A program made the translations under genes and the position numbers. Shown here in pieces: positions 7,557 to 10,582 of a stretch of DNA of 10,711 nucleotides (the first letter of the stretch is position 1; every line of letters begins with the position of its first letter). The DNA comes from a virus. The notes below the pieces were generated by a model. It was not told the origin of the DNA, searched no databases, and saw nothing but the letters and a program-made list of their open reading frames with translations. Location: IMG/VR virus record IMGVR_UViG_3300033148_008158. The stretch is one strand, 5' to 3'.

Positions 7557-7561
7557 GACAC

Positions 7562-7590
7562 CACTACGAGGGGGCTGAGGATTTGTTGAG
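7562..7590 (-). promoter_or_regulatory. conserved upstream element copy 1 (CTCAACAAAtcctcagcccCCTCGTAGTG)
   Basis: 5 nt upstream of the ATG at 7556. GAAAAACGACC lies upstream (7596-7606). Probably heads a 4-gene operon (7556 down to 5868). Confidence 0.6.
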
Positions 7591-7605
7591 GGCCTGGGTC
7601 GTTTT

Positions 7606-7905
7606 TCAGCTTTGGCCTGCGAAACCACCGATCTGCTCCCAGCCGGAGCCGCCGTGAGAGGGACACGATCCGGGACCATACCAACGGTCATGAGGATTGG
7701 CTGTATAGCCCCTCACACGGCGCTCAGAGGGTCTATGGGCCAAGGACAAGCCCCAACCCTCCAGCTCGACCCGGAGCCGCTTGATGCTGGTCTGGGTGGC
7801 CACTGAGAGGGCCTGGAGGTCAGCCGCGGTGAAGACCTCGACCTCATCGTCCATGAGGAACTCGACGAAGGCTTCAACGGACTCGAACTCAGGGGCGTTG
7901 TCCAT
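7606..7905 (-). CDS. hypothetical small protein (~99 aa), possible HTH-like segment
   Basis: ATG at 7903-7905 with GGAG 6 nt upstream. The upstream gene's TGA (7908-7910) lies 2 nt before it. The segment AADLQALSVATQTSIKRLRVELEGWGL resembles a helix-turn-helix; this is weak and by eye only. The ORF-track start 7917 is a GTG. Confidence 0.5.
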   Translation of the reverse strand: MDNAPEFESVEAFVEFLMDDEVEVFTAADLQALSVATQTSIKRLRVELEGWGLSLAHRPSERRVRGYTANPHDRWYGPGSCPSHGGSGWEQIGGFAGQS

Positions 7906-7907
7906 GG

Positions 7908-8444
7908 TCAGCTCCACGTGATGTTGGTGGCCCCTCGGGTGGCGGCCAGCTCGACGAGCGAGGCGAACCGCTCGATGCGATCCCGAAGGTCGTCCTCGGT
8001 GAGGGCTCCGCCGTGGGAGCGGACGGGCCGCAGCTCGACAACACCGTCCTCGCCGGTCCTGGGAGCCCCGTAGAGCGTCTCTGAGGCTCGGGTGTACCCA
8101 GAGAGGCTCTTGCGAGCCCGAGCCCTCATGAGGGCTCTACGGGCCTCTGCGAGGGTGATCTCGCCCCAGCAATCGACCGTGAGTCCGAGGGCTCCGAGCA
8201 GCAGGACAGCGTTGCCCTCGTTGAGGTTCAGTGAGGGGGCGTCGTCGTTCTCGACGGGCTCCACGCCGGTGCCCTTGCAGGAGGGGCACTTGTCCCACGC
8301 ATCAGCGGCCAGCTCGGCCCGATGGGGCTCCACGCCGTTCTGGAAGGCATCGCCGAAACACTCAGCGCCCTGGGCACAGAGGCAGGGCTCTTCCTTGATG
8401 GAAGTCTGGGTGTCGGTGACGTTGGCGGTGAAGGTGTAGCTCAT
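7908..8444 (-). CDS. Cys-rich hypothetical protein (178 aa), possible zinc-ribbon
   Basis: Start at ATG 8442-8444 (MSYTFTANV...), with GGAG 6 nt upstream and a copy of the conserved motif 9 nt upstream. N-terminus has CLC-x5-C ... C-x2-C spacing (EEPCLCAQGAECFG...DKCPSCKG). Confidence 0.6.
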   Translation of the reverse strand: MSYTFTANVTDTQTSIKEEPCLCAQGAECFGDAFQNGVEPHRAELAADAWDKCPSCKGTGVEPVENDDAPSLNLNEGNAVLLLGALGLTVDCWGEITLAEARRALMRARARKSLSGYTRASETLYGAPRTGEDGVVELRPVRSHGGALTEDDLRDRIERFASLVELAATRGATNITWS

Positions 8445-8453
8445 GGTCGCTCC

Positions 8454-8482
8454 CACTACGCGGTAGCCTCAGGTTTGTTGAG
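8454..8482 (-). promoter_or_regulatory. conserved upstream element copy 2 (CTCAACAAAcctgaggctaccgCGTAGTG)
   Basis: 9 nt upstream of the ATG at 8444, with GGAG in between. This is the variant copy (CGCGTAGTG). The TGA of the upstream gene sits inside the spacer. Confidence 0.5.
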
Positions 8483-8831
8483 GGCTATCTTCCCGTGCGT
8501 ACTCGTTGGGGTCTTCGACGGTGCGAACGGGGACCGTGCAGTCCCGGTCGAGGAAGAGGACAGTGCCGGGCTCGACAGCCGGCTCCCAGTTGCCCGCGTA
8601 GACGACGAACGTGTAGACGCCCTGGCCGTCCTGGTCCTTCATGAAGCCGTGGGTGCAGTCGGCGGCCGGGTAAGCCTGGCCGTTGCTGACCACGTAGCCG
8701 GCCCGAGCAAGGGCCTTCTCGACTTCGTAGGAGGTAGCGCAATCGGCCTCGTCGCCGTCGTTGAGACGGTCGATGCCGGTGGCGAGGGTGCGAAGAATGG
8801 CCGGGGTGAGAAGTGCGATGTTGTTGGACAT
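8469..8831 (-). CDS. hypothetical protein (120 aa)
   Basis: ATG 8829-8831 lies 5 nt downstream of a conserved-motif copy. N-terminus is MSNNIAL (ATG TCC AAC AAC). Confidence 0.6.
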   Translation of the reverse strand: MSNNIALLTPAILRTLATGIDRLNDGDEADCATSYEVEKALARAGYVVSNGQAYPAADCTHGFMKDQDGQGVYTFVVYAGNWEPAVEPGTVLFLDRDCTVPVRTVEDPNEYAREDSPQQT

Positions 8832-8836
8832 GTCAG

Positions 8837-8865
8837 CACTACGAGGCGGGCTCGGGTTTGTTGAG
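8837..8865 (-). promoter_or_regulatory. conserved upstream element copy 3 (CTCAACAAAcccgagcccgCCTCGTAGTG)
   Basis: 5 nt upstream of the ATG at 8831. An A/T-rich CCGATAATCGGTC lies further upstream (8868-8880). Confidence 0.6.
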
Positions 8866-8876
8866 GGCTCGACCGA

Positions 8877-9116
8877 TTATCGGGACGCCAGCTGCTCGGC
8901 GTAGTCGTTGGCCTGGCTCGTGGCGGAGGTCAGGGCGGCGGTACCGGCGCGGAAACCGCGGCCGTAGGGGCTGTCGAACACGCCTTTGGTGACACCGAGG
9001 ACACCCTCAAGGGCCTGGGGGCAGGTCATGCCCTTCACGGCGTCTTTGAAACCGTCGAGGTACATGGTGGTGGGGTCGGTGTTGATGGCGTCGGCTGGGT
9101 TGCTTTTGTTGCTCAT
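8877..9116 (-). CDS. hypothetical small protein (79 aa)
   Basis: ATG 9114-9116 lies 5 nt downstream of a conserved-motif copy. N-terminus is MSNKSN (ATG AGC AAC AAA). Confidence 0.55.
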   Translation of the reverse strand: MSNKSNPADAINTDPTTMYLDGFKDAVKGMTCPQALEGVLGVTKGVFDSPYGRGFRAGTAALTSATSQANDYAEQLASR

Positions 9117-9121
9117 GTCGG

Positions 9122-9150
9122 TACTACGAGCTGGGGTCGATCATGTTGAG
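9122..9150 (-). promoter_or_regulatory. conserved upstream element copy 4 (CTCAACATgatcgaccccagCTCGTAGTA)
   Basis: 5 nt upstream of the ATG at 9116. The element doubles as the last codons and TAG stop of gene 9124..9621. Confidence 0.6.
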
Positions 9151-9621
9151 TCTCTCGACAACTTTTTCGCCGATTCGGCTGTAGGGCTGCCCTTCCTTCC
9201 AGTTGCTGAGCAGGGGCACGAGGGCGTCCGTCAGGATCCCTCGGACGGCCATGAAGCTTCCCTCCCACTTGGCCTCTTGCTTGGGCGTGAACTTGTCGCC
9301 GTGAACCCGACACTCGCCCTTGAGCTTCTCGAAGAGGTTGTGGATGTCGTCCACGACCATCTGGAGGTCGGCCACATAGACCTCGGGGGGCAGGGGCTTG
9401 GCCTTGCCACACTCGAAGTCCACGTCGCCGGACCAACCACGGCTATCAACGACCTTCTTGCGACCGTCGAAGACGGCCCAGATGTAGTCCTTGGCCGTGT
9501 CCGTGGTAGCCGTTTCCAAGGCTTCCCGCTTCGAGGGGTGATAGCTCACGCCGGCCCAGGCCCCGGTTACAGCTTGCTGGATGCGGACGGAGAAACGGCT
9601 GTCGGAGTTCTTCTTGCTCAT
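9124..9621 (-). CDS. hypothetical protein (165 aa)
   Basis: ATG 9619-9621 lies 5 nt downstream of a conserved-motif copy. N-terminus is MSKKNS (ATG AGC AAG AAG). Its last 8 codons and TAG stop are themselves encoded by the next motif copy (CTC AAC ATG ATC GAC CCC AGC TCG TAG). Confidence 0.6.
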   Translation of the reverse strand: MSKKNSDSRFSVRIQQAVTGAWAGVSYHPSKREALETATTDTAKDYIWAVFDGRKKVVDSRGWSGDVDFECGKAKPLPPEVYVADLQMVVDDIHNLFEKLKGECRVHGDKFTPKQEAKWEGSFMAVRGILTDALVPLLSNWKEGQPYSRIGEKVVERLNMIDPSS

Positions 9622-9626
9622 GATCT

Positions 9627-9655
9627 CACTACGAGGCCGGGACTCAGATGTTGAG
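9627..9655 (-). promoter_or_regulatory. conserved upstream element copy 5 (CTCAACATctgagtcccggCCTCGTAGTG)
   Basis: 5 nt upstream of the ATG at 9621. Overlaps a perfect 9-bp inverted repeat, gaggccggg (9633-9641) and cccggcctc (9657-9665). Confidence 0.6.
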
Positions 9656-9672
9656 CCCCGGCCTCTCTTTCT

Positions 9673-10548
9673 TCACGCAGCCTTCGAGACAGCCTTGTCG
9701 GCGGCCTCTTCCAGGGCCTCGATGATCTCTTTGGCAGCCTTGGCGATCCGGCTTGCGCTCTTCTTCAGGCCCTCAGCCGCCTTGTCGCCCTTCCAGTTGG
9801 CGACGTAGGCGAAGCTGTAATCGGCGGTGTCCAGCCCGAAGTGGTTGCACACGATGAAGGCGACCGACTCGGCTTCCAGCTCGCGGTCACCGCGGCTCTG
9901 CTCGTCCCGGCTGAAGTCCGCGTGGAGCTTGCTGTGGGCAATCTCGTGGGCCAGGGTCTTGGCTTGCTGGGCTTGGCTGTCGGAAGAATCAGTGGCGATG
10001 AACTTGCCGATGCAGTCGTAGTAGCCGTGTGCCAGGCCGGGGATGACCTCGGAGCGAACCGGGACGCCCCGCTTCTCGCTGTGGGCCTTGAGGGCCGCGT
10101 ACAGGCCGCTGTCGCCACCTTCGAGGGGCTGACAAGGCATGGGCAGCTCTTCACCGTCCGTCTGGCTCACGTCGAAGACGGAGACGGTGCGGAAGAACGC
10201 GAGAACCGAGGTCTCTTCGCCGGTCTTCTCGTTGGTCTCTTTGCGAAAGCAGGGGGCCAAGATCTTGATGCTCTTCTCGCCCTTGCGGACCTGGCGGTCG
10301 TTGTCCTGCCACTTGCGGAAACCCATCACGATGCTGGCTTCGGGGCACTGCATCGAGATCAACATCGTGTTGTTCCAAGAGTAGCGGTAGAGGCTCGCCT
10401 GGAAGCGGAGCCACTTGGCCCAACCCTCGGTCGTGCGAACACTCTCGACGCCCTCTTCGAGACGTTCAAGAAGCCCCTTGACCTCAGCCTTCTTGGCTTC
10501 GACGGACTTGGCGTTGCGGTGGCCCTTCTTGGTGTTTCGCTTGGTCAT
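9673..10548 (-). CDS. ardC: ArdC-like antirestriction protein (ssDNA-binding N-domain plus zincin metalloprotease domain)
   Basis: N-terminal region WAKWLRFQASLYRYSWNNTMLISMQCP resembles the ArdC/TraC1 N-domain (DUF1738). The C-terminal region carries HExxH (TLAHEIAHSKLH) as in the ArdC metalloprotease domain. ATG lies 5 nt after a motif copy. Confidence 0.75.
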   Translation of the reverse strand: MTKRNTKKGHRNAKSVEAKKAEVKGLLERLEEGVESVRTTEGWAKWLRFQASLYRYSWNNTMLISMQCPEASIVMGFRKWQDNDRQVRKGEKSIKILAPCFRKETNEKTGEETSVLAFFRTVSVFDVSQTDGEELPMPCQPLEGGDSGLYAALKAHSEKRGVPVRSEVIPGLAHGYYDCIGKFIATDSSDSQAQQAKTLAHEIAHSKLHADFSRDEQSRGDRELEAESVAFIVCNHFGLDTADYSFAYVANWKGDKAAEGLKKSASRIAKAAKEIIEALEEAADKAVSKAA

Positions 10549-10553
10549 GTCAT

Positions 10554-10582
10554 CACTACGAGTTAGGGCCTCGTTTGTTGAG
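10554..10582 (-). promoter_or_regulatory. conserved upstream element copy 6 (mRNA sense CTCAACAAAcgaggccctaaCTCGTAGTG, then gatga/ATG)
   Basis: 29-nt core located 5 nt upstream of the ardC-like ATG. AAC-N16-CGTA geometry. Embedded 7-bp hairpin gggcctc/gaggccc (10566-10586). Confidence 0.6.

Follow-up and report, generated by a model that had tools for sequence, protein, structure and literature searches.

We analyzed a 10,711-nt stretch of viral DNA (IMG/VR virus record IMGVR_UViG_3300033148_008158; hereafter the window), in which a block of minus-strand genes headed by an ArdC-like anti-restriction gene carries six co-oriented copies of a 29-nt element. Judging from sequence comparison, the elements are probably promoters (we put the probability at about 0.72) for a bacterial-type RNA polymerase with an alternative extracytoplasmic function (ECF; group 4) sigma factor, and the mRNAs made from them would be leaderless. 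A preliminary description of the window had proposed such promoters, and the comparative evidence presented here supports that proposal.

Six copies of a two-box element in the window

A scan of the window with the pattern CTCAACAW-N(10-14)-CGTAGTR returned six matches, all on the minus strand and every one 29 nt long, and each is an exact CTCAACA-N15-CGTAGTR. The motif had no match in 200 dinucleotide-preserving shuffles of the window, which confirms the six co-oriented copies reported in the preliminary description. The open reading frame (ORF) coordinates also bear out the reported distances: the element ends 5 nt before the ATG of the genes starting at 10548, 9621, 9116, 8831, and 7556, and 9 nt before that of the gene starting at 8444. 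AAC and CGT are separated by 16 nt in all six copies, in keeping with the AAC-N16-CGTA geometry for which ECF promoters had been invoked. The genes had been described as six consecutive ones, but the block holds seven, six of which are preceded by a copy; the exception is a 99-aa gene (7606–7905).

Copy 1 (10554–10582, minus strand) consists of a putative −35 box, CTCAACA (10576–10582), and a putative −10 box, CGTAGTG (10554–10560), upstream of the ArdC-like gene. Transcription is predicted to begin on the A of the ATG at 10548, and the orthologue of copy 1 in a related contig (L072, see below) keeps the boxes with a diverged spacer. The remaining putative promoters, also on the minus strand, follow the same plan. 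Copy 2 (9627–9655; −35 box 9649–9655, −10 box 9627–9633) has its predicted +1 at the ATG at 9621, copy 3 (9122–9150; −10 box CGTAGTA) at the ATG at 9116, copy 4 (8837–8865) at the ATG at 8831, and copy 6 (7562–7590) at the ATG at 7556. The TAG inside copy 3 (9124–9126) doubles as the stop codon of the gene at 9124–9621, as had been noticed before. Copy 5 (8454–8482) is the one with the longer gap; its predicted +1 is the G at 8448, giving a 4-nt leader, GACC, ahead of the ATG at 8444, and the orthologue of this gene in another relative (L017) has its copy at the usual 5-nt distance.

The A-rich tracts noted upstream of the copies are present. One lies at 10588–10603 on the minus strand, about −55 to −40 of copy 1, where it resembles an UP element, and equivalent minus-strand tracts lie at 9661–9676, 9156–9171, 8871–8886, and 7596–7611. 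A search of positions 6900–10711 for housekeeping-type promoters (TTGACA-N16-18-TATAAT, with A at −10 position 2 and T at position 6) gave no match. When +1 is placed on the ATG, the base at −11 is G, unlike a housekeeping −10 element. We found no intrinsic terminators on the coding strand of the block.

Relatives keep the −10 box and vary the −35 box

The window matches the terminal 10.7 kb of a 25.9 kb Joint Genome Institute (JGI) metagenome contig, L002, at 99.5–99.8% identity. A few substitutions and small indels separate the two, including about 30 nt around positions 4447–4478 of the reverse-complemented window, so they are variants rather than one record. L002 carries a seventh exact copy (14539–14567) outside the window, again with a C-A step 5 nt downstream. 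The earlier statement that the window itself has no further copies holds, even at two mismatches. The gene next to the seventh copy starts 163 nt away, with cAGGAGaaccgagatcATG before its start, and the 163-nt leader holds an AGGAG Shine-Dalgarno site; hence, the motif is not bound to start codons. A closer test of conservation comes from L072, which is 82–90% identical to the window. At the orthologous promoters both boxes and the C-A step are intact, but spacer and discriminator differ. One promoter is missing from L072, and there the gene directly trails the upstream gene.

More distant relatives were reached through the ArdC-like protein, homologues of which (65–70% identity) are carried by contigs of 441, 185, 133, and 89 kb that are dense with small ORFs of unknown function. 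The 441 kb contig is JGI Ga0675941_000105, and the 185 kb contig is Ga0598270_0000010. Beyond ArdC and two other proteins, the contigs have hardly any genes in common with the window contig. The element design was nevertheless found on five contigs linked to the window through the ArdC homologue. The element reads CCCAACA-N15-CGTAGTA-GGGGC-ATG in L015 and L022, CCGAAC(C/T)-N15-CGTAGTA-GGGAC-ATG in L017, and CTGAATT-N15-CGTAGTA-GGGGC-ATG in the 441 kb contig L014; (G/T)CAAATC and CTTAACT are further −35 types in the family. Each genome has essentially one −35 type, and the CGTAGTA −10 box is common to all and nearly invariant. The −35 box differs by lineage.

We scanned metagenomes with the pattern AAY-N16-CGTAGTAGGGRCATG and obtained 68 stretches, from activated-sludge, sediment, soil, and other metagenomes, many of which carry several additional copies not selected by the scan pattern. 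The same pattern matched viral contigs of 372 kb and 241 kb in IMG/VR, with the identifiers 3300027985_000843 and 3300032136_000001, and about 30 copies are present on the former. The exact window-type motif, when searched in IMG/VR, gave nine single matches, all apparently due to chance. Copies can be dense (up to 14 CGTAGT sites within 7 kb in L059), and divergent back-to-back pairs occur in the relatives. Downstream of the sites, ArdC recurs at 8 loci; the other genes encode a PAPS-reductase-like protein and, for the most part, small singletons. This set fits an early or anti-defense regulon.

Three further observations concern the relatives. Downstream of some copies with 17-nt spacing there is no ORF start but a conserved G-rich sequence, GTGG(A/C)GGGTGGG(G/A)(A/C)C. 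These copies lie at 970, 1084, 3832, and 5474 (minus strand) in L059, at 5382 (minus strand) in L061, at 5696 (minus strand) in L095, and at 7436 and 9374 in L144, often back to back with a divergent copy, and may specify small phage RNAs. No Rfam family was found in these G-rich transcripts or in the 163-nt leader when L002 and the promoter-dense relatives were scanned. A suppressor tRNA (anticodon TTA, reading UAA) is encoded at 15439–15514 in L017 and at 1355–1430 in L096, the carriers being the CCGAAC-type relative and the 372 kb viral contig. Finally, eight bacterial-looking soil contigs of 65–69% G+C (L031, L038, L039, L050, L051, L065, L066, and L071) have CGTAACT-N15-CGTAGTAGGGRC-ATG upstream of one shared gene, with conserved boxes and a variable spacer. 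The product of this gene in L065 has about 770 aa and a signal-peptide-like N terminus. These contigs point to cellular ECF regulons that share the −10 box and a leaderless start.

Anatomy of the pooled sites

We pooled 125 non-identical sites, collected on recognized −35 hexamers with AAC or AAT (AAG in one case); the boxes CTCAAC, CCCAAC, CCGAAC, CTGAAT, and CAAAT account for most of them. The spacing between AAY and CGT is N16 in 113 of the 125 sites (90%) and N17 in the other 12 (10%), and a CGTAGTR −10 box is present in every copy. Information content peaks at −34 to −28 and at −13 to −6, and the spacer between is variable and G+C-rich. An A/T-rich tract lies either immediately 5′ of the −35 box or near −50. 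With +1 predicted 12 nt past the C of CGT, 68% of sites have C at −1 and 95% have a purine at +1.

The relation to translation starts was assessed on the 66 sites that are unbiased by the scan pattern. ATG or GTG stands exactly at +1 in 44 of them, where about 5% would be expected by chance. Most of the remaining 22 have 3–4 nt leaders, or leaders with AGGAG or GGAGG shortly before the start codon, and some have no nearby ORF.

Candidate ECF-type promoters and the alternatives

The B. subtilis sigma-W promoter is TGAAAC-N16-CGTA, and the actinobacterial SigE, SigH, and SigD promoters are of related ECF types. The sites described here resemble such promoters in their AAC/AAT −35 box, a −10 box that begins with CGT, a gap of 16–17 nt, a predicted pyrimidine-purine start step, Y(−1)R(+1), with A first where the transcript is leaderless, and upstream A/T tracts. 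They differ in forming dense arrays on giant-phage-like genomes, in the longer invariant −10 box CGTAGTA, in the G-rich discriminator of most phage lineages, and in that no cognate sigma/anti-sigma was found in the retrieved loci. A survey of ECF promoters likewise lists 16–18 bp spacers, Y(−1)R(+1), UP elements, and leaderless transcripts that begin with A, and leaderless ECF promoters have been predicted in Actinobacteria (PMC7776599).

We picture the elements as working in the following way. Sigma domain 4 would bind the upstream box CTCAACA (AAC at −31 to −29) and sigma domain 2 the downstream box CGTAGT (−12 to −7), with the A-rich tract farther upstream as a possible UP element. Transcripts would begin at the conserved C(−1)A(+1) step, 12 nt past the C of CGT; for five of the six copies this predicted start coincides with the A of the ATG, and the mRNAs would have neither a leader nor a Shine-Dalgarno site. 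The block would then be an array of one- or two-gene transcription units, headed by the anti-restriction gene, in what appears to be the early or anti-defense region of a giant-phage-like genome. We infer that transcription starts at these sites, that the factor is of the ECF type, whether of phage or host origin, and that expression is early. A start on the A of ATG would explain why the first genes lack a Shine-Dalgarno site, and also why such a site is found before the 99-aa gene, which has no copy of its own, and in copies with a leader.

Several points weigh against ECF-type promoters. No ORF with sigma region 2, and no ECF sigma/anti-sigma pair or phage sigma of the kind that the preliminary description had thought worth seeking, was found in any retrieved locus by precomputed Pfam or phmmer, the large genomes (89–441 kb) being covered in part. 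Phmmer searches of all six-frame ORFs of the retrieved loci with E. coli RpoE (an approximate sequence) and with a region-4 protein from L014 returned nothing below E = 0.9. Genes for ECF sigmas commonly lie close to their promoters and are autoregulated; there is no sigma-like family among the genes downstream of the sites. The L014 protein (75 aa; 16569–16796) is sigma-70 region 4 alone; we saw no homologue in the other retrieved loci, and a scan of IMG/VR with it gave only distant matches. Phage sigma factors are often too divergent for Pfam or standard models (PMC7826278). An ECF sigma would also be odd for an immediate-early anti-restriction gene, unless it is constitutively active, enters the cell along with the DNA, or is produced first from a different promoter class. 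In addition, the contiguous conservation of CGTAGTAGGGGCATG in the relatives exceeds that of most cellular sigma-dependent promoters. One tentative scenario, less likely than not, would be a widespread clade of uncultivated giant phages that encodes a highly divergent ECF-like sigma of its own and either packages it in the virion or makes it first from a second promoter class. Its domain 4 would have co-diversified with the lineage-specific −35 boxes while domain 2 and CGTAGTA stayed fixed, giving each lineage a private, orthogonal transcription channel for leaderless immediate-early anti-defense genes.

Other readers of the same DNA can be imagined. The giant-phage-like character of the relatives (contigs of 89 to 441 kb), the almost contiguous conservation of −13 to +3 in them, and the negative sigma factor search in the retrieved loci would all suit promoters for a phage-encoded RNA polymerase, either single-subunit (T7-like) or divergent multisubunit as in phiKZ and AR9. 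Known phage polymerase promoters are a single block near the start, whereas the sites have two blocks at −35 and −10, a freely varying 16–17 nt spacer, and UP-like tracts, which is the layout of the sigma-70 family. In place of the one contiguous block of about 20 bp across the start, with a polymerase gene, that is typical of T7-like promoters, the conserved blocks lie at −34 to −28 and −13 to −6, and RNA polymerase domains are absent from the precomputed Pfam lists of the loci, which give partial coverage. We consider a phage polymerase improbable, and assign a comparably low likelihood to an arrangement in which a sigma factor reads only the −10 box while the upstream box is the site of a phage activator or repressor, like the MotA box of T4 middle promoters or stoperators. 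Such an arrangement would account for an upstream box that is centered near −31 and varies by lineage next to a constant −10 box. It could also draw on the small helix-turn-helix proteins nearby (the 99-aa gene product in the window; HTH_31 in L015 and L022) and on the region 4-only protein of L014. However, in every lineage AAC/AAT stands at exactly the distance from CGT seen in ECF promoters, the −10 box differs from the housekeeping TAnnnT type used in sigma appropriation, and the upstream box is non-palindromic.

The preliminary description had named as its alternative an RNA-level start-associated sequence that acts in translation or processing, as proposed for Cluster K mycobacteriophages. 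The fixed 5 nt to the start codon in most copies, the single orientation, and the restriction to non-structural genes are indeed as in start-associated sequences (PMC3203893). Against this, the motif lacks a Shine-Dalgarno core; copies occur 163 nt from a gene or before leaders with their own Shine-Dalgarno site; some precede the G-rich sequence without an ORF; and divergent pairs exist. The middle 15 nt vary without consistent pairing, and the upstream half depends on the lineage. The two blocks, the varying spacer, the Y(−1)R(+1) step, and the off-start copies with ribosome sites together favor a promoter over an RNA signal, which we regard as very unlikely and the weakest of the rivals. Frpo-type single-strand promoters of plasmid leading regions, whose −35 and −10 boxes form when single-stranded DNA folds into a long hairpin beside conjugative transfer genes, were also considered and rejected: hairpins form at some copies only, they do not pair the two boxes with each other, and no conjugation genes were seen.

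Comparison with known repeated elements

A literature search for the motif sequence and for the concept found no description of this element. We compared it with three phage and virus systems. Cluster O mycobacteriophages have repeated, SigA-like, leaderless early promoters (PMC4351075). These are of the housekeeping type, with a TTGACA-like −35 and a TAnnnT −10, whereas the window elements have ECF geometry. The start-associated sequence of Cluster K consists of one 13-bp block, GGGATAGGAGCCC, with the Shine-Dalgarno core AGGAG inside it (PMC3203893). The window motif is similar to it and to the extended start-associated sequence (ESAS) in being an asymmetric, one-orientation repeat just before the ATG of non-structural genes, sometimes across the upstream stop codon (PMC3203893). 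It is unlike it in having two blocks with 15 variable bases between them and no AGGAG, and in not always being adjacent to a start (22 of 66 unbiased sites lie elsewhere). In archaeal viruses, anti-defense genes were reportedly discovered through a shared regulatory sequence (PMC11065993). The likeness is the idea that a shared upstream motif marks an early anti-defense regulon, here with ArdC recurrent at 8 loci, and the difference is that another domain of life and another promoter type are concerned (PMC11065993). ECF-type promoters, leaderless starts, and repeated phage early promoters are known kinds; what stands out here is the spread over giant-phage-like genomes and the combination of lineage-specific −35 boxes with a fixed −10 box.

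Genes of the block and their surroundings

The ArdC-like gene (9673–10548, minus strand, as are all genes of the block; 291 aa) encodes an ArdcN domain and an IrrE/M78-type metallopeptidase domain. It is followed by ORFans of 165 aa (9124–9621), 79 aa (8877–9116), and 120 aa (8469–8831), a 178-aa Cys-rich protein (7908–8444), the 99-aa small helix-turn-helix protein, and a 187-aa ORFan (6993–7556); the mRNAs of the four ORFans are predicted to be leaderless. The Cys-rich protein is conserved in L017 and L072 and has a weak Q-like PHROG match. The 99-aa gene starts 2 nt past the upstream stop codon, has a GGAG Shine-Dalgarno site at 7912–7915, and is presumably co-transcribed with the 178-aa gene. 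No family matches were found for the block genes other than the ArdC-like first gene.

Immediately past the ArdC stop codon is a G+C-rich hairpin with a 14-bp stem (9635–9663, minus strand; z = −5.6 and −5.1), whose loop and 5′ arm hold the −35 box of copy 2. A compensatory G-to-A/C-to-T change preserves the hairpin in L072, and it may end or stabilize the ArdC transcript. Some of the other copies, but not all, have weaker hairpins with TCAACAA in the loop. We rejected a hairpin as a general part of the motif, as only a subset of copies fold better than shuffled sequence.

The preliminary description had placed the block in the early or leading region of a phage or conjugative element. The phage-like option stands, and the conjugative one finds no support: the relatives are giant-phage-like contigs, no conjugation genes were seen, and there was no plasmid match. 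The window had no near DNA match in phage and plasmid collections. Its nearest named ArdC homologues are cyanobacterial, at about 45% identity, which is too weak a likeness to assign a host, and the only ArdC relatives in reference genomes were distant Clostridium fragments. Heavy use of leaderless starts would also fit Actinobacteria or Deinococcus-Thermus, and the host could possibly be an actinobacterium.

Genes outside the ArdC block are preceded by a second promoter-like class, GGTG-TAnnnn-N5-6-ATG, with no obvious −35 box and with the start codon at the expected +1. It occurs in the window at 820–837 and 1895–1912 on the minus strand and at 852–870 and 4744–4762 on the plus strand, and also in L002, L014, L015, L017, and L022. 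Some of its leaders are long, for example before a vault-like gene. In L017, a site 11 nt ahead of a tRNA gene argues that the class is a promoter and not a translation signal. The vault-like gene (window 1942–4656, minus strand) encodes a 904-aa protein with major-vault-protein shoulder and repeat domains. Proteins of AT-rich uncultured phage genomes of 462 kb and 735 kb (LR756500, LR756501, and LR756503) match it at 40% identity over about 80% of its length. There was no sign of the motif in the first 50 kb of one of these genomes, LR756500 (24% G+C). L002 also encodes a poly(ADP-ribose) glycohydrolase-type (microbial) protein and an HNH endonuclease (11756–12535 and 13101–13499, respectively); the visibly A+T-rich start region of the latter suggests a mobile insertion.

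Implications

For giant phages without a cultured host, the motif makes gene expression approachable from sequence. Transcription units and exact translation starts can be predicted from it, as can an ArdC-headed regulon of mostly small unknown proteins, which is a natural list of candidates for anti-defense or host-takeover genes. With their lineage-specific −35 boxes and constant −10 box, the sites amount to a natural collection of promoter variants that may be orthogonal, and if the sigma factor is found, the co-evolution of sigma factor and promoter could be studied directly.

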